Below, piece by piece: positions 23,562 to 49,154 of a DNA stretch of 64,000 bases. The translations under genes and the position numbers were made by a program. The notes beneath the pieces are model-generated. The model was given only the letters and a program-made list of their open reading frames with translations, was not told the origin of the DNA and did no database searches. Where the stretch lies: positions 160,001-224,000 of IMG/VR virus record IMGVR_UViG_3300014203_000001. One strand, 5' to 3'. This DNA comes from a virus. Lineage: Duplodnaviria > Caudoviricetes. Position 1 is the first letter of the stretch. The number at the start of each line of letters is the position of its first letter.

Positions 23562-23572
23562 TCGAGATCACC

Positions 23573-24517
23573 TCATATTCCAAGATCATAAATTACTGAT
23601 TTGGCATAGTCTATCATATATCTGCCACATACTTTATCTATCGTCTTTTGGTTATTTATATAAGCTCCTGTATAAGCATCAGTTAACATAGCAGAGAATG
23701 CTGGATAAAATTCCAACCCAAATGCTGTTCCTTCACCATATAGATACATCCATTTTTCTACAATTACATCTGCCGTAATACCTTCTATTTTGAATATCTC
23801 TCTAAGTAAAGCGCAAAACTCTTTAATATCTAAGAATGGGTTTTTATCATTCCTGGTAATAATAAAGTCATATGTATTTTCTTTCGTTTCCGTAATACCA
23901 GCAATCTTTCTAGAAAGATCTCTAATAGTAGTTTCGCTTTCTAGCATAAGAATATTAGTTAGATAATATCTAGCAGCCAAATATAAACATTTGTCTCTAG
24001 CCCCCTCTACAATACTAATCTTGCCAATATAATCTACTATATGAGTAAGCATAGAAGAAAAACAATTAGCCCCTAGCTCACGCAGTTTAGAGTTATTAAT
24101 TACCATTGTTGGTTTCAATGCATATATCATAGCTACTTCTGCATTGACTAAGTAAGATACAAGAACTCCTTCGTTTACTCTATAACCATTAGTATCTTGA
24201 GTAATGGCATTAGAACAATCAATAAATACTTTAACTGTATCTCTATCTTCTTTCGCATCTTTAGCACAAAATACTTTAAAAGATTTAGGTAATGGATGCG
24301 GAGGAATAATAAGCTGTGTATTCTTAGATGTAAGAACTTTAAGCAAACTGCTACTAACCCTAGTACGTTTTACTTCATATATCACATCTTCAAATTCTTT
24401 AGCCTCTTTATCTATTCTATCACTAACCATAATAGCCTCTGTTAAAACTGCATTGTATGCTGGGTGTTTCTTATAAAGGAAACAATCTGCGTAGGTTTTA
24501 TTAATTTTATTTATCAT
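23573..24517 (-). CDS. Putative virion protein (314 aa)
   Basis: Better start is ATG 24517 with RBS aggtgg; AACA-TATTAA-TA motif at 24544..24555; co-oriented with the 939 aa gene. Confidence 0.55.
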   Translation of the reverse strand: MINKINKTYADCFLYKKHPAYNAVLTEAIMVSDRIDKEAKEFEDVIYEVKRTRVSSSLLKVLTSKNTQLIIPPHPLPKSFKVFCAKDAKEDRDTVKVFIDCSNAITQDTNGYRVNEGVLVSYLVNAEVAMIYALKPTMVINNSKLRELGANCFSSMLTHIVDYIGKISIVEGARDKCLYLAARYYLTNILMLESETTIRDLSRKIAGITETKENTYDFIITRNDKNPFLDIKEFCALLREIFKIEGITADVIVEKWMYLYGEGTAFGLEFYPAFSAMLTDAYTGAYINNQKTIDKVCGRYMIDYAKSVIYDLGI

Positions 24518-24631
24518 TTGTATTTCCACCTTTCGTCTAAGTTTATTAATATGTTTAGAGTAGGTATATTTAGACAACTTTTACAAAGTTAATTTGTTAA
24601 GGACTAATAAATAAGAAGGGGGAGAAGAAAA

Positions 24632-25327
24632 ATGAATATGGAATCTTTAAAAGATATAGATTTAGGAAAAATAAATAGCATGTATACATATAAAGGTAGA
24701 GTAATACCAAGGGTAACTAGTATCTTAAGTAAAATGATCCATGAAGATTATCTCTTATATTGGGCTAACTCTCTTGGGTTTAAAAGAAAAGGATATAAAC
24801 AAACTTTGGGAGAAGCTGCAGATTACGGCGCCAGAACCCACAAAGGTATAGAAGAATTCTTACAAGAAAAAGAAGTTCCTAACAATACTCCCACAAATCC
24901 AATTGAAGCATTTAAACGTTGGTGGAACATAGTAAATTCTACTAACAAGGTTAAAATATTAGGACAAGAAGTATCTTTAACATGTCCTTGGTTTGGTGGT
25001 ACATATGATCTTCTTATAGAGATAAACGGAGCTATATACTTAGTAGATTTTAAGACTAGTAATAGACTATCATACAAATACTGCTTACAGTTAGCAGCAT
25101 ATAATTATATGGTGAAATTCAATAATCTACCAAATATATCAGGAGTGATTGTACTTAGATTAAAGAAAGACATTCCAGATTTTGAAGAGCTTGTATTGGA
25201 TTTTACTAATCCTAATACTTTAGATTTCTTTAATATGTGCGAAAGAACTTATCTTTCTTTAGTGCATTCATATTACCATATATCAGAAGTAGAACGACGT
25301 TATAAGATAATAGGGGAGGAAGATTGA
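24632..25327 (+). CDS. PD-(D/E)XK exonuclease (Cas4/RecB-like)
   Basis: PRVTSIL, GARTHKGIE, GGTYDLL..LVDFKTS, QLAAY. Confidence 0.85.
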   Translation: MNMESLKDIDLGKINSMYTYKGRVIPRVTSILSKMIHEDYLLYWANSLGFKRKGYKQTLGEAADYGARTHKGIEEFLQEKEVPNNTPTNPIEAFKRWWNIVNSTNKVKILGQEVSLTCPWFGGTYDLLIEINGAIYLVDFKTSNRLSYKYCLQLAAYNYMVKFNNLPNISGVIVLRLKKDIPDFEELVLDFTNPNTLDFFNMCERTYLSLVHSYYHISEVERRYKIIGEED

Positions 25328-26353: not shown

Positions 26354-26443
26354 ATTATATATGGGATAGAGAAATCTATCCCATATTCTTTTTGAAATAT
26401 GAGCCTACACTATTGTAATCGAACAAGAACGGAGGCAATCAAG

Positions 26444-27607
26444 ATGCTTACAGAGATAGCGACAAGGGTAAATACAGTGAATAAATTATTTGTGGAGGTA
26501 CATATTGCAGATTTACATTTCGGAGTTTTGAACCCATTATTACAATTTAATATACTCAGGGATCAGTTCTTAAACTACCTAGAAAATATGGCTATTATCG
26601 ACATAGTATCCATAAATGGAGATATATTCGAGCATAAGTTTATGGCTAATTCGGATGCTATTATGTATGCGTGTTATTTCATAGAAGCATTGGTTGATAT
26701 ATGTAGAAGAAAAGGCGCTACTCTTGTTATAGTCGATGGTACAACCTCACATGAAGGGGATCAGTTAAAATTATTCTATCCATACGTTGGAGTAGATAAA
26801 GGTGTAGACGTTAGAATAGTAGAAGAAGTACGATTTGAATATATTAAAGGTAAAAAGGTTCTAATCATACCAGAGATGTATGGTAAAGGTAAAGAATACT
26901 ATGAGAAGTTTCTATATCATAGTGGGATATATGATGCGGTTTATATGCATGGTACATTCAAAGGAACTATATATGGAAAAGACCAAGCAGATCTAGATTC
27001 GGATAGAGAACCAGTGTTCTCTATAGAACATTTCATCAATTGTGCAGGTCCTATTATGTCAGGGCACAGGCATACTCCAGGATGTTTTAGTACATATTTC
27101 TATTACTGTGGAACTCCAATTAGAGATAAGTTTGGAGAAGAAGAAGATAAAGGATTCATGATCCTAATACATAATACAGATTCGAGAGAACACTACGTTC
27201 ATTTCGAACCAATAGAGTCGTTTAGATATGATACTATTAACCTGGATGATATCATCGATAACGATCCTAAGGACGTTATATTTTACATAAAGAATCTACA
27301 GGCTAATGGGATACATAATATACGGGTACAACTTACAAAGAACAATGAAGATAATATAAATATACTTAAGTCTCACTTTAGAGGGAATTCTTCTATAAAA
27401 ATAGATGCTAACTTTAAGAATGAACAAGTAATAGAGAATATGAAAAGTCTAGATGCCAAATATAAAGAGAACCAATATGTCTATAACAAAGACCTATCAG
27501 AATATGATAAGCTAAGCAGATATATAAACCAAAACAAAGGCTATGTGTACATTACAGCTCAAGGATTAGAAGAATTTATTGCAAAAATTACAGACTCTAC
27601 ATTTTAA
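26444..27607 (+). CDS. sbcD: SbcD/Mre11-like metallophosphoesterase nuclease
   Basis: ADLHFG, NGDIFE, GTTSHE, MHG, SGHRH, YCGTP; start 26444 has RBS ggagg and a TACA-CTATTG-TA motif at 26406. Confidence 0.8.
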   Translation: MLTEIATRVNTVNKLFVEVHIADLHFGVLNPLLQFNILRDQFLNYLENMAIIDIVSINGDIFEHKFMANSDAIMYACYFIEALVDICRRKGATLVIVDGTTSHEGDQLKLFYPYVGVDKGVDVRIVEEVRFEYIKGKKVLIIPEMYGKGKEYYEKFLYHSGIYDAVYMHGTFKGTIYGKDQADLDSDREPVFSIEHFINCAGPIMSGHRHTPGCFSTYFYYCGTPIRDKFGEEEDKGFMILIHNTDSREHYVHFEPIESFRYDTINLDDIIDNDPKDVIFYIKNLQANGIHNIRVQLTKNNEDNINILKSHFRGNSSIKIDANFKNEQVIENMKSLDAKYKENQYVYNKDLSEYDKLSRYINQNKGYVYITAQGLEEFIAKITDSTF

Positions 27608-27639: not shown

Positions 27640-29460
27640 ATGAATCTTAAAGATCGAAAGGCAAAATATGAACCAAAGAAAAAACCACCTGAAGGTATTA
27701 AATTTAACTTTGATTTGACTATGATGAATACATTCTGCTCATATTGTTTATCTGAGAACACTGCAGTACATAGGAATTCTCTTGTAAACCTAAATACTAT
27801 TTTTAGTAAAATAGACGAGGCTATGTTCGAAAGCAACCAAGAGCTTATTATTAGATTCAGATTCTGTAAAGCTGCATTACATACTAAACTAGAGAAGAAA
27901 GTAACTAAAAGAGAATATGTTCTTAGAGATATTTATGGTATGATAGGATCGCAATTCGAATCACTCGATCAAAACAATTTCCAAGAATTAGCAAATACTG
28001 AGATTTCTTGGGTTGAAGAGATGATATCATCTTGTATGGATATAACTTTCATAAATAACAAAGTATCAGATCTGCAATATACTTGCACAGAGTATAACGG
28101 GGCTAGCTATGCTAGTAAAATGGGCATTGTAAATAAATTGAAGACACAGATAAATGAGATACAGACTCAATTTAGAAGAAATGATATTGAGAAAGACGGA
28201 GAGAATGACACATTCAAATTATCCCAAGCAGGACCCGCCGTGTATGCTATATGTAATAAAAAGAATAGACCTTCTTATAAATTAGCCACTGGAATGCAAG
28301 GGTTTAATGATATACTTGCGGGAGGATTTGAGGGGGGTAGGGTATATTGTTTATTTGGTCTTCCTGGAGAGGGAAAAACTATCACTTTACTAAACTTATT
28401 ATTCCAGCTTAAGAAGTATAATAGAAATTATGTCTGTAAAGATAAAACAAAACGCCCATGTATCGTTCTGCTAACGATGGAAAACCAAACAGAAGAAGGT
28501 ATTCAAACTATGTTTAATATTGCCTGCTCATCTGAGGATCTTTCATCATACCCTCCAGAAGTAGCTCTTCAGTTAATGATGGCTAAAGAATTAGCTGTAA
28601 CAATGGATTCCCCTATAGATATCGTCATTAAGTACAAGCCAATCAATTCAGTAAATACCAACTACCTATATAAATTAACAGAAGATCTTGAGGATGAAGG
28701 ATACGAAGTTATCGCAATGCTTCAAGACTACATAAAACGAATCAAACCTATGGATGAAAACAAAGAAGAAAGATTTAGATTAGGTAATGTAATCAATGAC
28801 TTCAAAAACTTTGCTATATATAAAGAGATACCTGTTATCACCGCTTCCCAATTCAACCGAGAAGCTGCTAGAATAGTAGATGAGAGCCGTGGTAGTAATA
28901 AAAACGACCTAGTTAAGAAACTAGGCAGAGCCAATATTGGAGAGTCTTCATTGATTGATGAAAATCTAGATGCCACTATATTTATTACCCCTGAATGGGT
29001 AGGAAATCAAAAATATATGGGCTTCAAAATAAGTAAGCACCGATACAAAATGTTCACGAAAGTAGCCGCATTTTATCAACCATTCGAAGAAGGAAATGAA
29101 GTTAGACTTATGGAGGATGAAGGATTAACACGACCTCTATATAAAGAAAGTCTTGTTAGGGATGCAGACGAAATCAAGAAAACCTTCGGTGATACTATAC
29201 GCTTCTCAACAGTTAGAGAGATTAAGGACATAGAAGAGTTAGAAGCAAATGAAAGTAAGCTAATTACTAGCGGAACTGTATATGGGGAAAATAAACAAGC
29301 CGCATATACTACATATAAAGATCCTGTATATACGATTATAGCAGAAAGGGTGCCAATTCCACCTAAACCTGTATTAACTACTATTGTTGAAAGAGTACCT
29401 ATTCCTCAGCCTAAATTAACTATTATTGCAGAGAGGGTAAAGATACCAGGTGTAGCATAA
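27640..29460 (+). CDS. dnaB: DnaB-like replicative helicase
   Basis: TGMQGFNDILAGGF, Walker A GLPGEGKT, LTMEN, QDYI, PVITASQFNR. Confidence 0.9.
   Translation: MNLKDRKAKYEPKKKPPEGIKFNFDLTMMNTFCSYCLSENTAVHRNSLVNLNTIFSKIDEAMFESNQELIIRFRFCKAALHTKLEKKVTKREYVLRDIYGMIGSQFESLDQNNFQELANTEISWVEEMISSCMDITFINNKVSDLQYTCTEYNGASYASKMGIVNKLKTQINEIQTQFRRNDIEKDGENDTFKLSQAGPAVYAICNKKNRPSYKLATGMQGFNDILAGGFEGGRVYCLFGLPGEGKTITLLNLLFQLKKYNRNYVCKDKTKRPCIVLLTMENQTEEGIQTMFNIACSSEDLSSYPPEVALQLMMAKELAVTMDSPIDIVIKYKPINSVNTNYLYKLTEDLEDEGYEVIAMLQDYIKRIKPMDENKEERFRLGNVINDFKNFAIYKEIPVITASQFNREAARIVDESRGSNKNDLVKKLGRANIGESSLIDENLDATIFITPEWVGNQKYMGFKISKHRYKMFTKVAAFYQPFEEGNEVRLMEDEGLTRPLYKESLVRDADEIKKTFGDTIRFSTVREIKDIEELEANESKLITSGTVYGENKQAAYTTYKDPVYTIIAERVPIPPKPVLTTIVERVPIPQPKLTIIAERVKIPGVA
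29320..29457 (+). repeat. Three imperfect peptide repeats in the helicase C-terminal tail
   Basis: PVYTIIAERVPIP / KPVLTTIVERVPIP / PKLTIIAERVKIP. Confidence 0.9.
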
Positions 29461-29475
29461 CTACACCTGCGTATA

Positions 29476-29904
29476 TTAAGAATGAAGTCCATTGTATGTT
29501 TCTATTGCTGCCCTTTCAGCATCATATATCATTGGTATATACTTTGCCATATCATCTTTATGCAGCATCTTAATACTGCTATTAGTAAACTCTTTCACAT
29601 CACACATATCGTTTATCATCAGAATTACATACCAAAGCTCTGTAGTATCATAGATATCAGATGATAATATCTTTGGTCTATAGAAGTACTTATTCTGTTC
29701 ACTCTCATTCAATACTACAACTTTAGCCACATTCTTAAGTTCAAAAAGATAATCGTTTAGAATATTCTTTACTGGAAATTCTATACCATTTCTCTTCTCT
29801 ATAAATGATAATTTAGGATATGTTATTACAGACGAATCTGCCATTGTGGATAGGAATTCACTAAGAGTATGTGCTTGTCTAGGATCTGTAACTATACCAG
29901 CCAT
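29476..29904 (-). CDS. Baseplate wedge / gp53-LysM-like protein
   Basis: YRPKILSSDIYDTTELWYVILMIND motif. Confidence 0.65.
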   Translation of the reverse strand: MAGIVTDPRQAHTLSEFLSTMADSSVITYPKLSFIEKRNGIEFPVKNILNDYLFELKNVAKVVVLNESEQNKYFYRPKILSSDIYDTTELWYVILMINDMCDVKEFTNSSIKMLHKDDMAKYIPMIYDAERAAIETYNGLHS

Positions 29905-30242
29905 TAGAATTCCCTCCCAACAATAATAGGTTTTGTTATATCGCCACTAGTAAACCCTACTATAAATCTAGTTCCTGGTGGTATGTATTTGGTAGGATAA
30001 TTAGCAGTTACCTCTTTGGGTATCTCTAGTTCTATCTCACTAGATGTTGTAGCTTCAGATACTGGAAGAATAGATGGATCTGCATTTAAAAGATGAGACG
30101 TACTAATCCTTTCAGTTTCTGTTGTAGTAGAGTTCTCTTGCAACCCAAGTATAGACTGTAGCCTAAACGTTTGAGTTCCAGGAGAATATTTGTTACAAGT
30201 CGTAAGTAATATAGCTACTTCGTTAGATAAAAAATCAGGCAT
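29904..30242 (-). CDS. Small baseplate-associated protein (gp5/Vgr OB-fold-like)
   Basis: IPPGTRFIVGFTSGDITKPIIVGR resembles the spike N-terminal OB-fold motif. Confidence 0.5.
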   Translation of the reverse strand: MPDFLSNEVAILLTTCNKYSPGTQTFRLQSILGLQENSTTTETERISTSHLLNADPSILPVSEATTSSEIELEIPKEVTANYPTKYIPPGTRFIVGFTSGDITKPIIVGREF

Positions 30243-30271
30243 ATTTATTTACCCCCTTTAAGCAAATATGA

Positions 30272-30323
30272 TTATATATTATATAAGTGACAAGGAATTA
30301 ATCGTTAGATTAATTTACTGTTA
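30272..30323 (+). promoter_or_regulatory. Early promoter-like motif (copy 6) plus long leader hairpin
   Basis: TTATATATTATA-taag-TGAC; gtgaca..gaattaatc-gtta-gattaattt..tgttat. Confidence 0.7.
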
Positions 30324-30346
30324 TAAAATTCATTTTAAAGGGGATA

Positions 30347-30886
30347 GTGTATATGGCTAGAATAAGTGCTAAACGACAATTATTAGAAGAGCAACAGAGA
30401 TTATTAGAAGAACAAACTTTACAGAAAAACTCATTTGATTGTGCGAATTTCTTAATGCAACGAATGGAGTTAGAAGTAGATGATAAAACTGGTTTCCTCG
30501 CTAGATATAATGAAGATACTGAAGAATTATCTGAAATTATATTTGATGGTAAGAAATGTAAAGATTTAAGAGCACCTATAGATCCTAGAAAAGAAATGCC
30601 GTTTGATCCGTATAATAATATTAAGCTATGCTGTGGTTTATTACAGTACTATGTAAATGAATATATGGGCAAAGATACCCAAATTATGTATCTATCAAAC
30701 AAAACAAGTAACGACGAGGGTACTCTTACATTAGTATTTGAAAATGGTCAGAGTGTAATAGGAAATCCGTATAATAAGGATACCCTAAAATATATTGATA
30801 TGATTGTTCTGTTAGATGGAGGAAATGCCATTGATAATAGGACAATAAAAGGAATGGATGTAAATGCCAATACATTTAAACGATGA
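30347..30886 (+). CDS. Hypothetical protein
   Basis: 179 aa ORF with RBS. Confidence 0.7.
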   Translation: MYMARISAKRQLLEEQQRLLEEQTLQKNSFDCANFLMQRMELEVDDKTGFLARYNEDTEELSEIIFDGKKCKDLRAPIDPRKEMPFDPYNNIKLCCGLLQYYVNEYMGKDTQIMYLSNKTSNDEGTLTLVFENGQSVIGNPYNKDTLKYIDMIVLLDGGNAIDNRTIKGMDVNANTFKR

Positions 30887-32045
30887 GCAAGAGGATATTG
30901 TTAATAAAGCTATCGATTTTTATCTAAACAGTTCTGAGCTTGTATTCCAATTTGATGGAAAAGCAGGCACGGGTAAATCTGTAGTAATGAATGAAATATA
31001 CCGAAGGTTGAATCTTACCATGGCAGATATAGCTCCTATGAGTTACATAGGAGCTGCTGCTATTGTTATGAGACTAAAAGGTTTAACTAATGCCAAGACT
31101 ATACACTCTTGGCTCTTTGAGCCTAAGATCGTATATGATATGGAGAATATGGACAATTATCTAAACAAACCTAAAGCCCGTTTAATTTTTGTGCCTAAAC
31201 CATTAGGAAACAAGAAATTGATATTTATAGACGAGGCTGGTTCTGTTCCGTATTCATTAAAGAAAGAATTAGAATCTAGAGGAGTTAAAATAATAGCAGC
31301 AGGAGATCTGAATCAGCTTCCTCCTCCATGTGACAAACCAGCATATCTATATTCAGGTAAGGTGCATCATCTTAATCAAGTTATGAGGCAGAGTTCACAG
31401 AATGCTATTATATATTTAGCTAATAGAATCTTAGAAGGGTATTCTATAGAGCCAGGATTTTATGGTAATGTATATGCTTTATATGATAGTCAGCTTACGT
31501 CTGATATGATTTCTAATAGTCAAGTTATCGTATGCGGTAAGAATAAGACTAGGGATAAGTTTAATAAGTATATACGAAAGACATTCTTTAACATAGACTC
31601 GACTTTACCATCTCATGGCGAAAGAGTTGTATGCAGAAAGAATAACTGGAAAGTAGATGCTGATGGGATAAACTTAGCAAATGGATTAATAGGCACAGTA
31701 GCTAACTATCCTAGTGTATATGGGTTTAATGGTAAAACATTTGAAATAGACTTCAAACCAGATTTATTTGATGGGGTATTCGAATCTTTAGAATGTGACT
31801 TTAAGTACTTCAATGCTCCACACGATGAAAGAGATAAGATAAAGAAGAGTCCTTTTAGCGAAGGTGAAAAGTTTGAATTGGCATACGCTATTACAACTCA
31901 TATAGCTCAAGGTTCTCAGTATAGGAATGGTATATACTTTGAAGAGTACCTAAATAAGGCTATAAATAAGAACCTAAACTATACTGGGATAACACGTTTT
32001 TCTGACTGGTGCTTCTATGTAATTCCGACACCTAAATATTTTTGA
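30864..32045 (+). CDS. SF1B Dda/RecD2-like helicase
   Basis: GKAGTGKS, TIHSW, FIDEAG, GDLNQLPP, AYAITTHIAQGSQY. Confidence 0.9.
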   Translation: MPIHLNDEQEDIVNKAIDFYLNSSELVFQFDGKAGTGKSVVMNEIYRRLNLTMADIAPMSYIGAAAIVMRLKGLTNAKTIHSWLFEPKIVYDMENMDNYLNKPKARLIFVPKPLGNKKLIFIDEAGSVPYSLKKELESRGVKIIAAGDLNQLPPPCDKPAYLYSGKVHHLNQVMRQSSQNAIIYLANRILEGYSIEPGFYGNVYALYDSQLTSDMISNSQVIVCGKNKTRDKFNKYIRKTFFNIDSTLPSHGERVVCRKNNWKVDADGINLANGLIGTVANYPSVYGFNGKTFEIDFKPDLFDGVFESLECDFKYFNAPHDERDKIKKSPFSEGEKFELAYAITTHIAQGSQYRNGIYFEEYLNKAINKNLNYTGITRFSDWCFYVIPTPKYF

Positions 32046-32063
32046 CAGCATAGATATTTATGA

Positions 32064-32101
32064 TTATATATTATATAGATGAGTACAAATACTTAAGACT
32101 C
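32064..32101 (+). promoter_or_regulatory. Early promoter-like motif (copy 7) plus leader hairpin
   Basis: TTATATATTATA-taga-TGAG; gagt..actc. Confidence 0.75.
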
Positions 32102-32123
32102 AAAATAAGGGGAGGAATTTATA

Positions 32124-32579
32124 ATGATTATTAAACCACTAATGCAAATCGTAACACGTATTAACCCACTAACAGGTAAAGAGGAAGCACCAAAAACCCC
32201 GCCTGAGCTTAAACAGTATCTACTGTTGTTACATTTCATCGAGGATACCAATAAGGAAGCTAAGGATTTTGAAATCATCACTGGAAGAAAAGAGACATTT
32301 GATTATCTACTTGAGAATATCGATTCTATCGATCTTACCCAAAGTCATGTAATGTCTCAGAATACCCCATTAGAAAATGCAATCACCGTATATAGTTTCT
32401 TACGCTTATGCTTAGAAAAGCATATGAACGAATCAGAAAAAGAAACTATTGACTACGATGAAACTATGCTTAATGAGCATATGGTAAACTTCTATGACAG
32501 CATGTCTGAAGAAGAACTAGATGCTCTTTATGAGGAAGAAATCAATCAAGCTTTTAAACCATATAATGGTGAAGAGTAA
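32124..32579 (+). CDS. Acidic hypothetical protein
   Basis: D/E-rich C-terminal third; N-terminal KPLMQIVTRI. Confidence 0.7.
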   Translation: MIIKPLMQIVTRINPLTGKEEAPKTPPELKQYLLLLHFIEDTNKEAKDFEIITGRKETFDYLLENIDSIDLTQSHVMSQNTPLENAITVYSFLRLCLEKHMNESEKETIDYDETMLNEHMVNFYDSMSEEELDALYEEEINQAFKPYNGEE

Positions 32580-32594
32580 TAGGAGGATTAGTAT

Positions 32595-33050
32595 ATGAAA
32601 CCTATGAGAAATAATAATCCATATAAAAAGAAAAGTGCTTTCTTCGACTACTTTCTAAAGCAAAGTGGAGAAGATTTTCTTATGAAGGAAAACATGGTTA
32701 ATCTTAAAAGAAGATCGACCATGTTCTTCCGAGATATGGCTAATGGTTCTTTTGATATAGAGAAGCATGGTCAATACATATCGAATGATTACTTGCTTAA
32801 TATCATGCTAAAAGAAGCAATGATAAAAGTAAAGTATTATTCTATCCATTGCCATTTTTCAGGAACTGTATTACAAGACCATCCAGAGTATAATAGTGAT
32901 GATGTGCAGAGTGCCATTAAAGCAGATTATGATAGCCTAACTGCATATACTATTATACGTGATGGATTACTTAATTTAATACAAACTAGAAACTTAGGAT
33001 ACCTAGCAATGATAGCAAATCAAATGCGGTATTTTAAGTATAGTTTATGA
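32595..33050 (+). CDS. Hypothetical protein
   Basis: RBS aggagg. Confidence 0.7.
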   Translation: MKPMRNNNPYKKKSAFFDYFLKQSGEDFLMKENMVNLKRRSTMFFRDMANGSFDIEKHGQYISNDYLLNIMLKEAMIKVKYYSIHCHFSGTVLQDHPEYNSDDVQSAIKADYDSLTAYTIIRDGLLNLIQTRNLGYLAMIANQMRYFKYSL

Positions 33051-33118
33051 AAACCACAACAGTATGATAATAAAAAGGGATATCTTTGATATCTCTTTTA
33101 TTTTTTCTAAGGAGGCGT

Positions 33119-33517
33119 TTGTCGTGCAAGAATTATGTTCTTTTCTTAGACAATTATAACTTAGCAGAATCGAATCATTTAAGTAAGCGTATTAAAGAAC
33201 GTACAGGTTTACCAAAAAGAGCGCATAAAAGATTTATTAACAGATTCGTTCAAAAGGGATTAAACGCAATAGAATTAAAAAAGAATGGTTTAGACTTATA
33301 CTATTATCTAATGAGTATAACTAGGAGTGGATATGTGCTTAAAGTATTAGACATATACATACTAGTGACATCCATCAATGGTGTAGGTGTTACTATTCTA
33401 AATATACCAAAAGAATATATTAATAAAAAGGGAGGCAATAATAATGGACACACCTCAGGTAATAGAGCTGCGAGATTTTGTGCACGGGATAAAACACAAG
33501 AATTTAAACGACGGTAA
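33119..33517 (+). CDS. Basic protein, DUF4258/RelE(BECR)-fold-like
   Basis: SNHLSKRIKERTG..YILV..GVTILN; TTG start after aaggagg. Confidence 0.45.
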   Translation: MSCKNYVLFLDNYNLAESNHLSKRIKERTGLPKRAHKRFINRFVQKGLNAIELKKNGLDLYYYLMSITRSGYVLKVLDIYILVTSINGVGVTILNIPKEYINKKGGNNNGHTSGNRAARFCARDKTQEFKRR

Positions 33518-33881
33518 AGAAAGACCGCTTACTCTTATGATATTGGTAGACAATGCATATGGGTTTTTTAACGAAGCAATTCATATCGTAAGATGGGACG
33601 ATGCAAAAGAACGTTTTTATGTATTTGGGTATAACAGTGTAGGAACTAATCCTAATATGGGAAGTAAAAACCCCACTGGATTTGGAGAACTATCTATCGT
33701 TGATTATGGGCAAATCCAACAGTTTAAAGTAGTATTATCAGAAGTAGATTTTGATGCTGTATGTACTGCATTGGGATCATCTCTAATGCCAGACGATGTT
33801 AGAGAAAATACTAGAATGAAACTGTTCACCACTACAGATCCTGCATATTATATCAAGAAGGATCAAGAAACCCACTACTAA
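33444..33881 (+). CDS. Hypothetical protein
   Basis: RBS gggagg. Confidence 0.7.
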   Translation: MDTPQVIELRDFVHGIKHKNLNDGKERPLTLMILVDNAYGFFNEAIHIVRWDDAKERFYVFGYNSVGTNPNMGSKNPTGFGELSIVDYGQIQQFKVVLSEVDFDAVCTALGSSLMPDDVRENTRMKLFTTTDPAYYIKKDQETHY

Positions 33882-33902
33882 AAGTAGAAAATTACACAGG
33901 GT

Positions 33903-33956
33903 AAACATTAAGATAATTATATATTATAATGGTGAGACTCAATAGTTTGAAGTCAT
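33903..33956 (+). promoter_or_regulatory. Stacked AACA-N6-TA and early motif (copy 8) with bulged-A leader hairpin
   Basis: AACA-TTAAGA-TA at 33903; TTATATATTATA-atgg-TGAG at 33917; GACT-CAA..TTG-A-AGTC. Confidence 0.7.
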
Positions 33957-33988
33957 AAACTAATAAAAAATAAAGGGGAAATGAAATT

Positions 33989-34864
33989 ATGTGGAACAAT
34001 AACTCTTGGGGAAATAATGGTATGGGTGCAAATATGGGAACAGGATTTGCTAATACCAATACCCAAACCATTCCAATGAACCAAACTTTAACAAAAGAAG
34101 AATGCATTAAACTGCAAGAGAAAGGTCCTAAATTCTCATTCAACTTGACTGAGACTGAATACCTTCGTGCTATTTGTGCACACAAAGATCCTGTAAATGG
34201 AAATATCTCATTGAAAGATAATAATGATGGTACACATACTTGTGGGATTTGCCATGAAACATTTACTCTATTAGATCCAGATAAATTTGATCGCGCTGCA
34301 ATTGAAGATATCTGCGCTGATTTCAATGATCTATTCCAAACGATTAAAACTATGTATGGTCCTGTGCCAATTGAAGCTGGTCGTGACTTCTACTCATTCG
34401 TAGGATTTATTCCTCATATACCTGAATTATACGAAGTAGCTTCAGAGTACTTTGGTAAGATTGAAAACACTGGTAGAGGTGTTACTGATAATCGTTCTAT
34501 GCATGGAGCTAATCTTCTTTATGCAATGATGAATCCTCAGTATCCAATGGGAGTTCCTATGGGAGCTGCAGTAAATGCACCGCCAAATGCAGATGCTAAT
34601 TTCCAACAATACCAACAATGGTTAGCATCTCAACAACAAGCCCAACAACAGGGTCAACCACAATTCCAACAACCAACACAAAGTCAATTTGGTAGTGTAC
34701 AAACACCAAATGCCAACTTTGCGGCAGGACAACCAAATCCAGCATATGCACCACAAAATAATGGATTTGTAAACCCAATCGGATTTGTCGAAGAAAATCA
34801 AACAGCCGCAGTAGGAGCACCTCCTACACCAGCAGCAAATGTAACCTCAGGATTTAGAAGCTAA
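33989..34864 (+). CDS. Zn-binding protein with Q/N/P-rich low-complexity termini
   Basis: CAHK..HTCGICH; C-terminal QQQAQQQGQPQFQQP tract. Confidence 0.7.
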   Translation: MWNNNSWGNNGMGANMGTGFANTNTQTIPMNQTLTKEECIKLQEKGPKFSFNLTETEYLRAICAHKDPVNGNISLKDNNDGTHTCGICHETFTLLDPDKFDRAAIEDICADFNDLFQTIKTMYGPVPIEAGRDFYSFVGFIPHIPELYEVASEYFGKIENTGRGVTDNRSMHGANLLYAMMNPQYPMGVPMGAAVNAPPNADANFQQYQQWLASQQQAQQQGQPQFQQPTQSQFGSVQTPNANFAAGQPNPAYAPQNNGFVNPIGFVEENQTAAVGAPPTPAANVTSGFRS

Positions 34865-34951
34865 AATATGATATAGACAGTAGATATATATCTACTGTCT
34901 ATATTCTTTGTTTAAAAGAAATACCAAATTTTTTATACAGGAGGCAATGAT

Positions 34952-37315
34952 ATGCCTAGAGAAAAACTAACCAAAGAACAAATTGAAAACATAAGAGGAT
35001 ATGCTACTCAGATAAGAACTATCAGCGACTTCTCTTTAGCTGTAAGACAAAACCCAGGACAATATATTGGCTATCTAAACAATAGAGGTTTTATCAATAT
35101 GATACGAGAAGTGTATCAGAATAGTATGGATGAGTTACAAAAAGATGATTCTCCGTGTACTACGATTAGATTAGAATATTATGAGGCTAATCATACTGTT
35201 ATCGTATCAGATAACGGTAGAGGCGTTCCTCACGATAACATGAAACGTATTTTTACGGAACCAAATACTTCATCTAACTATGATAAGAAAGATGGAGAAT
35301 TCTCTGCAGGATTGCATGGTGTAGGTTCTAAAGTTACAAATGCTTTAAGTTCTGAGTTCTTTGCAGAATCTTATCTATGTAAAGAAGCTTCTCTATCTGG
35401 CAAACCAGAAGCGCGAAGAATCGAATTTATAGATGCGATTGCATGGGAAGAAGGAGGAGAATTAGGTGAACTCCCAATTCCAAATGAGAATAACTTACAA
35501 GGAACAAAGGTAGAGTTTAGACCTTCATACGAAATTATGGGAGAGATAACTACTACATGTGAAGATGTTCTTTCTCTTATAACTTCATTGTTGCCTCTTA
35601 TGAAAATAGGAGCAGTAACTGACTTCTATGGTATTAAAGAGAATGGAACCATCATAGATCAACATATTGTGAACGAAGATGGAATTGTTTCGTTCTTGGT
35701 CTGCAATACAGACAACCCACTTTTCGAACCAGTTGTTCTAAGCAGAACAACTAAAAATATGAAAGCTGATATTGCTTTCACGTATGACTGCGCTGACACA
35801 CATGGAGTCGCCAACATACTTTCATTTGCAAATACATGTCCAACTGTTAATACTAATGATAGTACACATGTTAGTGGATTTACGGATGCACTAACAAACT
35901 ACTTTAGGAATTATATGAATAAGATATATCTTAATAAATCTAAAACAGTAGTTGTAAACAACGATATAAAATATGGACTACGGGCGGTAGTGTCTGTGTC
36001 TCATATTAAACCGTTGTTTAGTGGACAAGCCAAGGAAATATTCTCTAATAGAGATATAATTCCTTTCATCAAAAGTTTGATGATAGAAGGGCTTGATGAA
36101 TGGTGTAAAGCCAGATCATCCGATTTGCAAAAAGTATGTATGCACTTCAAAGGTGCCGCAGATCTGCGTATGAAAAGTGATAAAGAAAAAGTTAATATGG
36201 CTAAGAGATACACAGCCTCGGCATTAACTGGTTTACCAGCAAAATATGATAAACCAAATGGCGATAAGAATTTAGAGTTGATTATAGTAGAAGGGGATTC
36301 TGCTAAAGGACCTTGTGAAACTGCTAGATGTGCAGAAAGACAAGGTATCTTTCCGTTAAAAGGGAAACCGCCTAATGCTATGGTAAAATCGACTAAAGAT
36401 TTCATCGAGAATGATGAAGCTAATGGCATTATGCATATCTTAGGCGGAACATATGGTAAGAACTTCGATATCAATAAGTGTAAGTTTGAGAAGATCATTA
36501 TACTTTGCGATGCAGATTTAGATGGTCTACATATTAGAACATTGCTTCTTAAAATGTTCTTAGTTTACTATGTTCCATTGGTAGAAGCAGGTAGAATATA
36601 TGGTGCAGTTCCGCCATTATACCATACAATCATTAATAAAAAATCAGTTTACTTCCCATCCAAACATGACCTTATCAAATATACTCAGTCTAAGTTTAGT
36701 ATAGAGAATAAAGTATTTGATATTAACAAAAAACATTTGAGTGGTACTGATTTAGTTGGAATACTATCTAGAAATTCTAATTATATTAGAGATCTAAATA
36801 TAGTAGCTGATAACTATGCGATAGATCCTTATCTGTTAGAGTTTGTACTCTCTATCAGAAATCTTCAGTTCAATGAGTTTAAGAAGAGGATCAAATCAAA
36901 CTATAGATTCTTGAACGTTGAATTACAGAATGGCACACCAGTATTAGATGGCTTACTGGGAGAAAAATGCCCAACCGTTATTCTAAATCAAAATCTATTA
37001 GATGCTTGTGCTCCAGTGTTACATTATATAGATGGTGAACATTTATATTACAATATTAATGGAGAGCAAACTAGTCTATATGGTCTAATGAATAAATTTA
37101 GTGCATACCAACCAGCTAAAATAGACCGTTTTAAAGGATTAGGCGAGATGTCACCACAACAATTAAGAGAATCTACCCTACATCCAGATTACAATAGAAC
37201 GCTATTACGCTATACTGTAAATGATATCAAGCGAGAAATCGAAGAGATCAGAGAAATAGAGTGTAATAAGAATTTGCTATTCAAAGATATAGATATTGCT
37301 GCGTATGAATTTTAA
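34952..37315 (+). CDS. gyrB: Type IIA topoisomerase subunit B (GyrB/ParE)
   Basis: EVYQNSMDE, DNGRGVP, GLHGVG, VEGDSA, PLKGK, DADLDG, RFKGLGEM. Confidence 0.95.
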   Translation: MPREKLTKEQIENIRGYATQIRTISDFSLAVRQNPGQYIGYLNNRGFINMIREVYQNSMDELQKDDSPCTTIRLEYYEANHTVIVSDNGRGVPHDNMKRIFTEPNTSSNYDKKDGEFSAGLHGVGSKVTNALSSEFFAESYLCKEASLSGKPEARRIEFIDAIAWEEGGELGELPIPNENNLQGTKVEFRPSYEIMGEITTTCEDVLSLITSLLPLMKIGAVTDFYGIKENGTIIDQHIVNEDGIVSFLVCNTDNPLFEPVVLSRTTKNMKADIAFTYDCADTHGVANILSFANTCPTVNTNDSTHVSGFTDALTNYFRNYMNKIYLNKSKTVVVNNDIKYGLRAVVSVSHIKPLFSGQAKEIFSNRDIIPFIKSLMIEGLDEWCKARSSDLQKVCMHFKGAADLRMKSDKEKVNMAKRYTASALTGLPAKYDKPNGDKNLELIIVEGDSAKGPCETARCAERQGIFPLKGKPPNAMVKSTKDFIENDEANGIMHILGGTYGKNFDINKCKFEKIIILCDADLDGLHIRTLLLKMFLVYYVPLVEAGRIYGAVPPLYHTIINKKSVYFPSKHDLIKYTQSKFSIENKVFDINKKHLSGTDLVGILSRNSNYIRDLNIVADNYAIDPYLLEFVLSIRNLQFNEFKKRIKSNYRFLNVELQNGTPVLDGLLGEKCPTVILNQNLLDACAPVLHYIDGEHLYYNINGEQTSLYGLMNKFSAYQPAKIDRFKGLGEMSPQQLRESTLHPDYNRTLLRYTVNDIKREIEEIREIECNKNLLFKDIDIAAYEF

Positions 37316-37321
37316 GATATA

Positions 37322-37360
37322 CCCCTTATCCCAAGTGGATAAGGGGATACTTTTATTTTA
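37322..37360 (+). terminator. Intrinsic terminator
   Basis: ccccttatcc-caagt-ggataagggg plus T-rich tail. Confidence 0.7.
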
Positions 37361-37395
37361 CTTATCAAGAGGTAATTAATAATGATTCTAGTTTA

Positions 37396-37472
37396 TACAT
37401 TTTCTTATGTATAAGAGAATATGGATTTTTATGTAAAGATTAAATGATTACATAACCGTATACATTTTCATA
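37396..37472 (+). promoter_or_regulatory. Cluster of three TACA-N6-TA motifs upstream of the DHH-nrdD operon
   Basis: TACA-TTTTCT-TA (37396), TACA-TAACCG-TA (37449), TACA-TTTTCA-TA (37461). Confidence 0.45.
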
Positions 37473-37512
37473 AGGCAGAATAAATAACCGAATAAAGAGA
37501 GGAAGAATAAGT

Positions 37513-38469
37513 ATGTTAAAAAAGATTTATGATGGAGAAAGATTAGTAAGAGTAGTTTCAGACAACGTAGGAAAGGCTCTAAAGTTCTTTAGAACTCAAG
37601 AGAAGATAGTAGTATTTCATCATGATGATGCAGATGGAAAACTAGGAGGAAGAATGGTCTATGAAGCTTTTAGATTAGATAATACTAAAAGATTTCATTG
37701 CTGTAACTATGGAACAAAAATGCCAAATCCAAATATGGTAAAAGAGGGAGATGTAGTATTTATTGTAGACTATTGTATCCCAACAGATCAGTTAAGAGAA
37801 ATTACAGAAGTTGCTAGTTTAGTAGTATTCCTAGATCATCACAAGACTGCTATGGATATGGTAGCCAAAGACTTCGAATACTATTCTAAATTAGTAGAAG
37901 AAGATAAACTTATCATTGACTTAGATATGGGACGATGTGGCGCTAAAATTGCAAGCGAATATTTTATTAGCATTGGACTAGATAAAGGATGGAACGAAAA
38001 AGTTGTTGATTTAGTAGATAAGTATGATAGATGGACAAAAGAAGATCCGAGAGCAGATTACTTAAATCAGTTCATCTATAACAGCAGTATGTCATATGTG
38101 AATTCTCAAATGTGGTATGATCTACTATATGACGAAGAATATTTCCAGAGAGCAATCTCTATTGGTAAAGAATTCTTCGATATCAATCTACATAAGAACG
38201 AATTAACGTTTAGAAGCTTTGCTAAAGAAACTGAGTTCCATGGATTGAAAATCTCTGTTATTGAAGGATTTGGAAATTCTCAATTATTCGGAGATCATAT
38301 CGATGATTATGATGCAGTTTGCGTATTTCATATTACCAATAACGGCAAATGGCAGCATTCAATCTATTCATCCAAACCAGGATCTGGTTTGAATAAGATC
38401 GCAGAAATATATGGTGGGGGTGGTCACAAATCAGCCGCAGGTTTCATATTGGACGAAAGGATATTCTAG
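37513..38469 (+). CDS. DHH/DHHA1 phosphoesterase
   Basis: HHDDADG, IVDY, LDHH, GGGGHKSAAGF. Confidence 0.9.
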   Translation: MLKKIYDGERLVRVVSDNVGKALKFFRTQEKIVVFHHDDADGKLGGRMVYEAFRLDNTKRFHCCNYGTKMPNPNMVKEGDVVFIVDYCIPTDQLREITEVASLVVFLDHHKTAMDMVAKDFEYYSKLVEEDKLIIDLDMGRCGAKIASEYFISIGLDKGWNEKVVDLVDKYDRWTKEDPRADYLNQFIYNSSMSYVNSQMWYDLLYDEEYFQRAISIGKEFFDINLHKNELTFRSFAKETEFHGLKISVIEGFGNSQLFGDHIDDYDAVCVFHITNNGKWQHSIYSSKPGSGLNKIAEIYGGGGHKSAAGFILDERIF

Positions 38470-38531
38470 ATTACATACAAAAAGGCATCGTTAAGATGCC
38501 TTTATTTTTTATAAATAAAGGAGATACTACC

Positions 38532-39491
38532 ATGATTACTTATATTAAAAAAAGAGACGGTAAAGTAACGGACTTCAATGAAAGAAAAATCTCCAATGCA
38601 ATTCTAGGAGCAATGAAAGAAGTATGGGGAAAAGAAATTAAAGCATCTACTCAAGCTAATAGAGCTGCTAGTATTGCTAAAGATATAGCTAATGCTATGG
38701 AAGAATCAGTTGTAGAAGTAGAGAAAATTCAAGACTTAGTAGAAGATAAACTAATGAAGAAATTCCCTGAAGTTGCTAAAGCATATATTAAATATAGACA
38801 AGAACGTACTCGTATTAGAGAGATGAATAGCGATATCAATAAGCATATTAAAGAAGCATTGAGCTGTTCTAATGTGCAAAATTCTAATGCTAATTTAGAT
38901 GAATATTCATTTGGCGGTAGAAAGAACGAAGCATCTAATATTATTCAAAAAGAGTTGGCATTGAGAGATTTCATTTCTCCAGACGTAGCAGATGCTCATA
39001 GAAATAATGATCTTTATATACATGATTTATCTGAATATACAGTTGGCATGAGCAATTGCATGTTTATCGATTTTGGGAGATTGCTACGTTGTGGGTTTGG
39101 TACTAGAAATGGCGATGTACGACCAGCTAATACATTTGCAACTGCTTGCCAACTAGTGGCAGTAATAGCACAATGCACAAGTCAAACTATCTTTGGCGGT
39201 GTAGCTAGTTCTAGTTTAGATCATGAGTTAGCACCATATGTAAGAAAAAGTTTCTTGAAGCATTACAAAAAAGGTTTAAAATATGCCGATAGAAGAAAGT
39301 CAAAAACGTGGAAAGATTTTGATATACTTTATAATCGTGTATCTAAAACAGCTTCTATTATTGCTAAAGGTAATATTTTTAAAAATTATTCTAATGCCGC
39401 ATATGAATATGCTATAGATCTTTTAGAAGAAGAGGGATTACAAGCCACACAGGCATTATACCATAACTTAAATACTTTGGAATCTCGTGCT
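38532..39491 (+). CDS. nrdD: Anaerobic ribonucleoside-triphosphate reductase, exon 1
   Basis: ATP-cone IKKRDG..F, YIHDL, ..LYHNLNTLESRA; RBS aaggag before ATG 38532. Confidence 0.95.
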
Positions 39492-40811
39492 TAACGTTGA
39501 GCGTGGGCACCTTATACGGCGACGTATATGTAAAAACTCGTGAACGTAGAAATCTACGGTGTGTTATCGAATATTTCATTTGTATTAACTGCAGGAAATG
39601 GCAGCTAACGATAATGCTAACTGGGAACGTTTAAGTTTTTATATGGTATTATACATCATATAAAAATAAAATAATCCAGTGCTAAGCTGTATTGTAGTGA
39701 GAGGTGTAGTAAAAATGGCATCGATACCATTAAAAGAATCAGACTATGTAGGAAAGATTTATGGGAATCTTACAGTATTAAAATTCGATGGATACCGAGG
39801 AAACTCAACTAGTTTATGCGTATCAGTAGAATGTAAATGTGGAAATACCAAGTCTGTCCAACTTGGTAGTTTAAAACGCGGAACAACTAGAAGCTGTGGC
39901 TGTTTGAACAGAGTTAAAGTGGATGATTATATAGGAAAAACATATAATCGACTAACTGTTTTTGGGCATCATAGAAACGAGACGGGAGACTTATTCCTAG
40001 ATTGTGATTGTAAGTGTGGGAATACAGCATCTATCCGATTTTATGATGTACTCAGATCAGCGACTAAAAGCTGTGGGTGTTTAATTGCGGAAACGAATTC
40101 TATAAATAACAAAGCTAGAAAACAATATAATGAATTCGAATATATAGATGAAGATACTGTTAAAGTATGGCTATCTAACTGCAATGAATTTATGATCTGC
40201 GACTCTTCAACTTGGGATGTATTACGATATTATCTGTGGAGAAAACATCACGAAGGATATGCCACTGCCGATTTAGATGACGGTAGGATAGTTGCGTATC
40301 ATGTTGTAATATTAGAATGCCCAACTGGATATGTAAGAGATCATATAAATCGAAATAGATTAGATAATAGATATTCTAATTTAAGAGTTGTAACACCTAC
40401 AGCCAATGCTATAAATAGAACGCTTCTAGATAAAAACAAATCTGGACATCCTGGGGTCTATTTCGATAAATCTCGTAATAGATGGAGAAGTTTTTACGCA
40501 GATCCCATAACTAAACAAACAAAATTTTCTGATTTTACTACATATGAAGATGCTCTAAAAGATAGAATAGAAAAAGAGCAAACTTACTATAAGATAGAAA
40601 GTCTAACGACTAACAAAATTATTAATATCCCCATAGTTAGTAGAATAATAGCAGAACGGGTTAATATTAATAAGAGTAGATAGCTTAAGGGTGAAATTCC
40701 CTTAGGTGAAGCGCGAGACTCTCATGGTAGTCATTTGTATCATGAGATGATGATATAGTCTATTCCCCTAATAAATATCGGGAAACCGAGGGTACAACGA
40801 GAAGGAATAAG
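39492..40811 (+). mobile_element. Group I self-splicing intron in nrdD (1320 nt)
   Basis: 5' splice site GCU|UAA; IGS GGCAC (39506-39510) pairs exon GUGCU with a U.G pair; GUUGAGCGU pairs the 3' exon GCGCUCAAC (P10); P7 strands AACGACUA / GAUAUAGUC; omega-G at 40811. Splicing restores ESRA-GAQLPFSSI in frame. Confidence 0.95.
39715..40683 (+). CDS. Intron-encoded HNH homing endonuclease (Zn repeats + HNH + AP2-like)
   Basis: Two CKCG..SCGC repeats, DHINRNRLDNRYSNLR, SGHPGVYFDKSRNRW; RBS gaggtg. Confidence 0.9.
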   Translation: MASIPLKESDYVGKIYGNLTVLKFDGYRGNSTSLCVSVECKCGNTKSVQLGSLKRGTTRSCGCLNRVKVDDYIGKTYNRLTVFGHHRNETGDLFLDCDCKCGNTASIRFYDVLRSATKSCGCLIAETNSINNKARKQYNEFEYIDEDTVKVWLSNCNEFMICDSSTWDVLRYYLWRKHHEGYATADLDDGRIVAYHVVILECPTGYVRDHINRNRLDNRYSNLRVVTPTANAINRTLLDKNKSGHPGVYFDKSRNRWRSFYADPITKQTKFSDFTTYEDALKDRIEKEQTYYKIESLTTNKIINIPIVSRIIAERVNINKSR

Positions 40812-42578: not shown

Positions 42579-43343
42579 ATGGAATTAGTTGTAGTAGGAA
42601 AGGATAATAAAGAAGAGATTGTTGAAAAGCTAAACAAATTCATCGGTACTCCAATTTTATTTTCTGGATTTGGGAGTATCAGGTATATATCCTCTGGAGA
42701 GGCGGCTAAAGACAAAACTAAAATAATAACATCTGGTAGTTCATATATGACTAGGGAAAGACCGATAGACAAAATACTCAAAATCGATATATCCAATGTT
42801 ATCAATTTGTTTACCACAGATATGCCTATACCATATAAGATATATGAAGGATCAATATTAGAAATTTACGATGATTTATTAATCGCACATCACAATCCAA
42901 TATCTGATAAATGGACAACTTCCACTTTTAATTTTACAGGGAAATCTATGTTTGATATTAGTAAGATTTCTCTTGTAGAAGTTAGTGAAGTCACTATTGA
43001 TACTTTAGTAGAAAAACTAAATATTTTTGTTGGTAAAAAATCTAGAATCGTTAGTTTTACTGATAATCTTATCATCAATACAGATGACAATAATAGAGTT
43101 ACTGATATTCATAACGATAATATATTTTCTGTAACAAAACAAAAAGAATTTGGAAAATTAATAGCTATAGAAAAATGTGATATATTAGGTGCTTTTAATA
43201 TAACAATGAAGTATGATAATAAAAAGGATAAAATATGTATAGATATGATATATGGTGGTGATGTGGTAGAGGTACATGAAAATTATATTGTTATTCACCG
43301 TAAAGATTCATGTATAATCAATACTTTATATTTTAACGATTAA
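42579..43343 (+). CDS. Two-domain member of paralog family P2
   Basis: Internal duplication IVEKLNKFIG / LVEKLNIFVG. Confidence 0.7.
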   Translation: MELVVVGKDNKEEIVEKLNKFIGTPILFSGFGSIRYISSGEAAKDKTKIITSGSSYMTRERPIDKILKIDISNVINLFTTDMPIPYKIYEGSILEIYDDLLIAHHNPISDKWTTSTFNFTGKSMFDISKISLVEVSEVTIDTLVEKLNIFVGKKSRIVSFTDNLIINTDDNNRVTDIHNDNIFSVTKQKEFGKLIAIEKCDILGAFNITMKYDNKKDKICIDMIYGGDVVEVHENYIVIHRKDSCIINTLYFND

Positions 43344-48590: not shown

Positions 48591-48653
48591 GTGATAATAT
48601 AAGAGATAGTAAATAGCTATCTCTTTATTTTTTGTAATACTTAGTTATTTTAG

Positions 48654-48710
48654 TCATATATTATATAAGTGAGCAATAATAAAATATTGTATCTTATATT
48701 GAGGTGATAT
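48654..48710 (+). promoter_or_regulatory. Early promoter/leader cassette (copy 11)
   Basis: About 55 bp, near-identical to 57956.. and 59511.. Confidence 0.8.
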
Positions 48711-48711
48711 T

Positions 48712-49140: not shown

Positions 49141-49154
49141 AGGAGGAGTTTATA

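Follow-up and report, generated by a model that had tools for sequence, protein, structure and literature searches.

A portable peptide tag on replication, repair and transcription proteins of an uncultured AR9-like giant phage and a predicted clamp-fold protein as its candidate docking partner

The DNA analysed here (the window) is the 64,000-nucleotide stretch at positions 160,001-224,000 of IMG/VR virus record IMGVR_UViG_3300014203_000001 (G000:C1), and it encodes several proteins that bear variants of one short peptide, hereafter the tag. The whole record is the 245,713-bp genome of an uncultured AR9-like giant phage, with terminal repeats and 32% G+C; window and genome coordinates are kept apart below, and genes outside the window were called by a simple open reading frame (ORF) caller. 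The replication and transcription genes of the phage are ~30-34% identical to those of its distant kin, the Bacillus phages AR9 and PBS1 and the Staphylococcus S6-type jumbo phages. Closer relatives, recognised by the hundreds through their helicase and RNA polymerase (RNAP) homologues, are known from metagenomes only. The tag follows the consensus L-x-x-I-[AV]-[ET]-R-[VI]-[PN], often continued by I-P, with conserved positions at i, i+3, i+4, i+6 and i+7, and IIAERV is one of its forms. Tag sites were scored with a position-specific scoring matrix (PSSM) that was built from regular-expression matches and applied with a cut-off score of at least 19.

Three tagged proteins are encoded on the plus strand in the replication region of the window. 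The SbcD/Mre11-like phosphoesterase (window 26399-27607) carries the tag MLTEIATRVNTV (26444..26479; PSSM score 24.5) in an N-terminal extension of ~25 residues. The AR9 orthologue gp002, annotated as SbcD-like, begins directly at the catalytic domain, and the SbcD proteins of the relatives either display their own tag variant in the N-terminal extension or lack the extension. The DnaB-like replicative helicase (divDNAB; window 27640..29460, 606 residues) matches Pfam PF20307 (4.7e-28) and PHROG 3213. Its ~31% identity to the AR9/PBS1 helicase is confined to residues 25-508; DnaB homology stops near residue 480-505, and the tag-bearing tail lies beyond. The tail contains three copies of the tag, VYTIIAERVPIP (29326..29361; PSSM 30.7), VLTTIVERVPIP (29371..29406; PSSM 31.2) and KLTIIAERVKIP (29413..29448; PSSM 30.7), the last of them 6 residues before the C-terminus. 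The three proline-spaced repeats with which a first-pass annotation of the window had the helicase end are thus present as described. A small acidic protein of 151 residues (window 32124-32579) begins with MIIKPLMQIVTRINPL, the related peptide that had also been pointed out, and scores as a tag carrier as well (PLMQIVTRINPL, 32136..32171; PSSM 23.2). Its orthologues in six relatives start with the tag variant of their own genome.

A further tagged protein is encoded within a group I intron (window 39492..40811, +) of nrdD, the gene for anaerobic ribonucleotide reductase. The reading frames place the exon junction between ESRA and GAQLPFSS, with U at 39491 and G at 40811 as boundary bases. In its 3′ core (40744-40802), the intron is 91-94% identical to introns of SPbeta-, Twort- and A9-type phages, and a homologous intron is present on contig L024 on both sides of the ORF. 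An Rfam search with the whole intron returned no match because the ORF splits the model; the intron halves yielded weak partial matches, with 18.3 bits for Intron_gpI, below the gathering score of 50. The intron ORF (39715..40683, +) encodes a 322-residue HNH (HNH_3 and AP2-like) protein (Pfam PF13392, 7e-9; PHROG 374, 1.3e-35), and its HNH domain, its position inside the intron and the flanking nrdD exons identify it as a group I intron-encoded homing endonuclease.

The homology of the intron HNH to its family stops at about residue 304 of 322, and the protein ends, as the first-pass annotation had noticed, in the tag: its C-terminal end is IPIVSRIIAERVNINKSR (also given as IVSRIIAERVNINKSR), with the scored site VSRIIAERVNIN at 40636..40671 (PSSM 25.8). 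The closest homologue, P0129 (305 residues, 67% identity), ends in TTNKIIDN and has no tag. DNA alignment with the homologous intron and HNH of contig L024 reveals a 32-nt insertion (window ~40628..40659, +) that supplies the codons of the tag and moves the reading frame beyond the former stop. The intron HNH acquired its tag through this insertion. The only other member of the HNH family in the genome, a free-standing HNH, also ends in the tag, and three HNH-family ORFs are tagged in G001, a 184-kb IMG/VR relative. These observations back the earlier proposal that the selfish nuclease mimics the tag. The accompanying proposal, that the tag is encoded in a peripheral stem-loop of the ribozyme, holds for the location, in that the insertion lies in the ORF-bearing intron loop, but not for a demonstrated ribozyme stem; the region forms an AU-rich local hairpin in the minimum free energy (MFE) fold only.

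The tag greatly exceeds chance expectation, which was estimated by shuffling residues within proteins in 100 rounds. In a six-frame translation of the whole genome, exact IIAERV occurs four times, and all four copies lie in real ORFs no more than 35 residues from the C-terminus (two in DnaB, one each in the intron HNH and a superfamily 2 (SF2) helicase). The pattern [IV][IV]AER[VI] was observed 5 times (0.03 expected), I[AV][ET]R[VI] 15 times (0.54 expected) and L..I[AV][ET]R[VI] 10 times (0.03 expected). The PSSM located 22 sites with a score of at least 19, compared with 0-0.1 per shuffled proteome, and the next scores are clearly lower, with none other above 15. The sites lie almost only in terminal zones, linkers or extensions beyond conserved domains. 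The codons vary among the copies: arginine is encoded by agg, aga or cgg and serine by AGT or TCC, and the tags of the HNH and the RNAP beta subunit share 22 of 30 bases, with serine codons that are not interconvertible. The repeat therefore exists at the level of the protein rather than the DNA, and selection acts on the peptide.

These figures bear out the first-pass judgements that a six-residue match of this kind was unlikely to be fortuitous and that the HNH and helicase tags use partly different codons. Coincidence, a repeat at the DNA level or structural demands of the intron RNA could be argued from the AU-rich MFE hairpin of the HNH tag region, but the shuffle statistics, the differing codons, the 16 carriers that have no intron and the conservation of the tag with co-variation leave this explanation a negligible probability. 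RNA pairing, which had been named as a possible sole cause of the HNH copy, is not needed to account for it. A literature search found no description of a docking motif of this kind in jumbo phages.

The proteome scan that the first-pass annotation had suggested uncovered many further carriers, with strong enrichment on DNA- and RNA-acting proteins. Across the genome, ~22 tag copies are distributed over ~17 otherwise unrelated proteins, and every carrier of assignable function acts on nucleic acid. Outside the proteins described above, C-terminal tags are found in the SF2 helicase (genome 14392-15972; in tandem), a 252-residue protein (28539-29297), the free-standing HNH (57222-57866), an 86-residue protein (84925-85185) and a 102-residue protein (158726-159034). 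N-terminal tags are found in an RNAP-associated protein (35232-36863; PHROG 25005), a 98-residue zinc-ribbon protein (234292-234588) and a 323-residue AT-hook protein (239359-240330, minus strand). The DNA polymerase PolB is split, and its polymerase half (22983-24635) contains a tag at residue 234 within an insert, while its exonuclease half (240949-242883) contains three copies in its tail. NAD ligase (228498-230786) bears the tag at residue 109 in an N-terminal extension. The C-terminal half of the non-virion RNAP beta subunit (225991-228414) contains ~5 copies in a 135-residue extension; its orthologue in AR9 is the non-virion beta C-half, to which the 135-residue tail is an addition, and this relationship argues against a virion-packaging signal.

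Two of these carriers have further features. The 323-residue protein contains the AT-hook KRRGRPPAKK in a disordered N-terminal region, and the hook is conserved in G001. The polymerase half of PolB is a single 697-residue ORF in G001 and consists here of two pieces of 137 residues (genome 21317-21730) and 550 residues (22983-24635), separated by a 261-residue ORF (22005-22790) whose G001 homologue lies elsewhere and begins with a tag-like peptide. The 261-residue ORF is probably another intron or mobile insertion.

The identity of the carriers and the positions of the tag bear on the idea of a processing or sorting signal, such as a degron, a prohead-protease site or a capsid-targeting sequence. 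The mostly terminal placement of the tag and the resemblance of I-A-E to the (L/I)-x-E cleavage context of T4 type would suit such a signal. However, glutamate is lost in whole lineages of relatives (IA[FYH]R, VAMTLVDP), the carriers are replisome and non-virion RNAP proteins rather than virion proteins, copies are internal at residue 234 of the polymerase half of PolB and residue 109 of the ligase, and a degron is hard to reconcile with tandem copies on essential enzymes. A signal of this type is accordingly highly improbable. Prohead-protease cleavage, capsid targeting and degradation were rejected on these grounds, and a DNA repeat and RNA pairing on those given above.

Orthologous positions in the relatives keep the tag, and its sequence is specific to each genome and common to the carriers of that genome. 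The loci around the helicase were compared in six relatives and those around the RNAP beta subunit and ligase in one. Among 120 helicase homologues, the tails of close relatives contain the same kind of motif and those farther out other hydrophobic motifs, so that the presence of the motif in orthologous helicases, which had been set as a check, takes the form of co-varying variants. The variant is IVERV or IVTRV in relative L010, VV[DEM]R in L018, LIxxVQ[IV] in L012 and LxI[IM][SN][IL]V in L017, and in L011 IA[FYH]R is shared by SbcD, DnaB and the acidic protein. On contig k119_244510, DnaB contains EVAMTLVDP, the RNAP beta tail contains (V)AMTLV[DN]P four times, the acidic protein opens with NVMHVIDP, the ligase extension contains TAMHLLD and the zinc-ribbon protein opens with QVAVTLN. 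In a 4 × 4 comparison of helicase and RNAP tails by best 8-mer score, the same-genome pair ranked top in three rows (32, 25 and 39). G001 has tags of the IVERV flavour at the corresponding ends of 11 orthologues. The co-variation was seen in eight relatives, a sample taken without tree correction.

Such concerted drift across genomes is expected of a peptide with one co-evolving reader and fits poorly with a conserved host hub. The tag is thus very probably a docking peptide for a single, phage-encoded partner that co-evolves with it. A candidate for this partner, or reader, is encoded beside the exonuclease half of PolB. An unannotated ORF of 234 residues (G000:C1:242884-243588; L031) starts in overlap with the PolB stop and is translationally coupled to it. 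The protein matches no Pfam or PHROG family. Its ESM-Atlas model falls with PCNA and beta-clamp clusters, with template modelling (TM) scores of 0.59-0.67 over ~200 of 234 residues, and the nearest named Atlas clusters by features are gp45 clamps. A newly predicted model displays the beta-alpha-beta-beta-beta repeats of a clamp domain. Foldseek placed 9-1-1, DnaN and PCNA at the top of its matches to the model (best E 6.5e-4). In a Foldseek-independent comparison (VIA), the top 33 of 33 rows for residues 1-131 of the model are clamps or clamp-fold processivity factors (Z 8.0-5.9, 105-120 aligned residues, root-mean-square deviation 3.0-4.2), among them T4 gp45 with a ligase peptide, UL44 and the African swine fever virus clamp.

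The clamp-fold protein is encoded beside PolB in G001 too, at 38.6% identity, next to a polymerase at 75%. This identity falls in the lowest ~5% of 117 reciprocal best hits between the two genomes, for which the median is 64%; the protein is fast-evolving, as expected for the reader of a drifting tag. The tag in turn occupies flexible termini and linkers of a polymerase, a ligase, nucleases and other DNA enzymes, as in clamp clients, and a sliding clamp available to such clients is seen at the level of the fold only (predicted models, Foldseek and VIA). AR9 has a hypothetical protein of 238 residues, gp128 (L049:5163-5879), whose gene is syntenic to the clamp-fold gene, with the PolB-N/RNase H genes on one side and the same virion structural gene on the other. 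There is no detectable sequence similarity between gp128 and the clamp-fold protein, and gp128 is a possible AR9 clamp, as a lead only.

Several points weigh against a clamp as the reader. The clamp-fold assignment rests on predicted models of moderate quality: the new model has a poor overall predicted local distance difference test (pLDDT) value of 50.9 and leaves the second domain unresolved, and a Z value near 8 is a middling score for a clamp match. A search for orthologues for a deeper alignment found just one, so that only two clamp-fold sequences are known, both from R-type genomes. No match in the genome was obtained with the Pfam clamp models PCNA_N, DNA_pol3_beta_2 and gp45-slide_C or with the clamp loader model PF13177, although clamp-fold processivity factors that are independent of a loader exist (UL42, UL44 and Rhc). 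The tag fits no known clamp-binding consensus (Qxx[ILM]xx[FY][FY], QL[SD]LF / QLxLxL or the T4 tails), tandem tags at 3-5 per chain are unusual among clamp clients, and UvsX, the Dda-like helicase and both topoisomerase II subunits are DNA enzymes that are free of the tag. Rhc, a clamp-derived domain fused to RNase H in Chimalliviridae, serves there as third subunit in the homologous split PolB; in PhiKZ it is described as binding the polymerase as a single subunit through a large domain interface of ~1,800 square angstroms rather than through peptide tails (10.64898/2026.09.30.755723, 10.64898/2026.10.01.755736).

Given this balance, the 234-residue protein can be named as the reader only tentatively, at slightly less than an even chance. 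For the docking explanation as a whole, with the clamp-fold protein as the likeliest partner, we estimate a probability of roughly 0.55. The first-pass proposal of a docking peptide for a hub is retained to the extent that the tag is a non-chance feature of the proteins and that the clamp version of the hub has gained a candidate in the cryptic, predicted clamp-fold protein beside PolB.

Docking could instead take place on a different hub, either another phage protein, such as a cryptic single-stranded DNA-binding protein (SSB) or a replisome organiser, or the host beta clamp or SSB. The evidence for a common partner does not itself name the partner. Searches of the genome for SSB, gp32 and PC4 gave no match beyond a sub-threshold PC4 score of 15.7 bits, and no BRCT domain was matched in the genome; as no SSB is recognisable, one must be hidden among the ORFs of unknown function. 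Moreover, the DnaB-like helicase of AR9, gp007 (L014:3583-5268), ends in DSGIPF, like the bacterial SSB tip (DDDIPF / DDDLPF), which implies that helicase tails in this group have been used for protein docking. Within the first 100 kb of the AR9 genome, this type of ending is unique to the helicase, and no tag of the present kind occurs in the same 100 kb. Host hubs have very conserved peptide pockets, a poor fit to a drift from IAERVP to VAMTLVDP, and the clamp-fold protein is the only hub-type fold found, so that a different hub is rather unlikely. Predicted complexes of the DnaB tail with three conserved proteins of the helicase neighbourhood, namely the core of the low-complexity protein at window 33989-34864, a second 151-residue protein (32595-33050) and a 179-residue protein (30347-30886), gave interaction prediction scores from aligned errors (ipSAE) of 0.00, which speak neither for nor against these partners.

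Another explanation takes the tag as an address signal, a linear code that would admit or concentrate the proteins of replication, repair and late transcription, and with them the parasitic homing nucleases, in a replication compartment or condensate that does not depend on chimallin, with a shell, pore or scaffold protein as the reader. The client list mirrors the proteins imported into the phage nucleus of Chimalliviridae (helicase, ligase and non-virion RNAP; PMC13282480), the copy number grows with the size of the machine (five in RNAP beta, three in DnaB and three in PolB-N), and selfish HNH nucleases have repeatedly gained the tag, a pattern that would suit gated access to DNA. The hydrophobic spacing of i, i+3, i+4 and i+7 may resemble that of amphipathic encapsulation peptides. 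The genome further encodes a tubulin homologue, a tubulin/FtsZ-like protein at window 62417-63586 (+; PF00091 at 28 bits, below the cut-off) that is followed by a gene of unknown function, and the replication module includes a clade-specific low-complexity protein with Q/N/G/Y-rich tails and a zinc-ribbon core.

Several points speak against an address signal. No homologue of chimallin or of PicA/Imp1 was found by tblastn and phmmer with PhiKZ gp54 and gp69 (best E 0.59-0.78), nor any bacterial microcompartment (BMC) shell protein (PF00936), and the import into a compartment that the first-pass annotation had offered as its second option is left with neither shell nor importer. AR9-like phages have no chimallin and are regarded as not nucleus-forming, and import in Chimalliviridae uses no linear terminal signals (PMC13282480). 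The tag-free UvsX, Dda and topoisomerase II count against an address signal as well, and no candidate reader for it has support. We consider an address signal the main alternative, though an unlikely one; if real, it would give bacterial viruses their first linear 'nuclear localisation signal'.

Under the preferred explanation, the tag would anchor its carriers to a single, co-evolving protein of the phage, and this docking would bring replication, repair, late transcription and the homing nucleases together on the phage DNA. The tag would act as a clamp 'toolbelt' peptide, comparable to the gp45-binding tails of T4, the PCNA-interacting peptide (PIP) box and the beta-clamp motif. The clamp-fold protein may correspond, as a stand-alone protein, to the Rhc clamp domain of Chimalliviridae, in a divergent toolbelt that would take in the late RNAP, as that of T4 does by way of gp33 and gp55, and that homing nucleases would have joined.

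One portable, fast-evolving peptide appears to connect the replisome, the repair enzymes and the late RNAP in a large clade of uncultured giant phages, which belong to a group said to have no classical sliding clamp (Iyer et al. 2021, PMC7824862). The tail of DnaB or of RNAP beta offers a bait with which the organiser of their replication and transcription could be sought. The clamp-fold protein is a candidate for this organiser and would tie the group to the Rhc of nucleus-forming phages. The 32-nt insertion would represent a natural case of a selfish homing endonuclease gaining a host-virus docking code. Should the clamp-fold protein prove to bind the tag, a T4-like coupling of late transcription to replication would have arisen here in a different form, with the RNAP core itself as a clamp client.

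Two other observations were made in the window. The low-complexity protein at 33989-34864 (+) has 291 residues, with Q/N/G/Y/P-rich tails at both ends of a conserved core; the core contains an invariant C-x-H...C-x2-C, and NP[IV]G[FY]VE and DV..F[KR]G are conserved near the C-terminus. It is always located upstream of topoisomerase II in the relatives. It could be assigned to neither a Pfam nor a PHROG family, a search of 50,697 phage records yielded no homologue, and its predicted fold has a pLDDT of 42.7, too low for use. A role as a scaffold or as an SSB-like protein is conceivable. At 47644-53908 (+), a run of small ORFs (~105-145 residues) includes several with similar N-terminal halves, which the N-terminal half of an internally duplicated 254-residue ORF at 42579-43343 resembles. 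These ORFs look like a paralogous family.

Rhc is among the closest known systems. The sister group Chimalliviridae has the same kind of split polymerase (DNAP-N and DNAP-C) and a homologous non-virion RNAP. A pull-down with Rhc recovers non-virion RNAP subunits, and Rhc is needed for late transcription, according to two preprints of October 2026, which in the parts consulted report no tag system (10.64898/2026.09.30.755723, 10.64898/2026.10.01.755736). A clamp-derived protein that serves replication and also associates with the non-virion RNAP is a precedent in favour of the clamp reading. In the present phage, unlike in Rhc, RNase H and clamp seem to be encoded separately: a stand-alone RNase H of 231 residues (genome 124103-124798) was found by phmmer with PhiKZ Rhc gp155 (E 8e-5, N-terminal domain), and the 234-residue clamp-fold ORF contains no RNase H part and has no detectable similarity to the Rhc clamp domain.

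The tag also resembles BMC encapsulation peptides, the cargo-loading peptides of encapsulins and nuclear localisation signals (NLSs), which are portable short peptides at either terminus of unrelated enzymes, joined by flexible linkers, sometimes in multiple copies, with carriers that share a destination and a hydrophobic pattern like that of an amphipathic helix. These systems differ from the present one in that no shell, pore or importer is recognisable here and no compartment is known for AR9-like phages. The bacterial SSB tip (DDDIPF-type) and the acidic tails of T7 gp2.5 and gp4 provide a precedent for a peptide-mediated hub that organises many DNA enzymes, and the AR9 orthologue of the tagged helicase has an SSB-like ending. 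The polarity is reversed, however, since the clients carry the peptide here, and the tag is hydrophobic and basic rather than acidic and aromatic.

In T4, several proteins bind the clamp gp45 through their C-terminal tails, namely gp43 (the polymerase), the ligase, and gp33 and gp55, which act in late transcription; this precedent, too, favours a clamp as the reader of the tag. As in the toolbelts of gp45, the PIP box and the beta clamp, one short peptide is found here on flexible ends of the polymerase, ligase, nucleases, helicases and late transcription machinery, and a protein of predicted clamp fold is encoded beside the polymerase. The conserved positions 1, 4, 7 and 8 of the tag are spaced similarly to those of the PIP box. 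The sequence of the tag differs from the known clamp motifs, no loader was found in the genome and the candidate clamp is undetectable by sequence. The phage further departs from these toolbelts in placing up to five tandem copies of its tag on one chain and in extending the tag to the replicative helicase and directly to a core subunit of RNAP.

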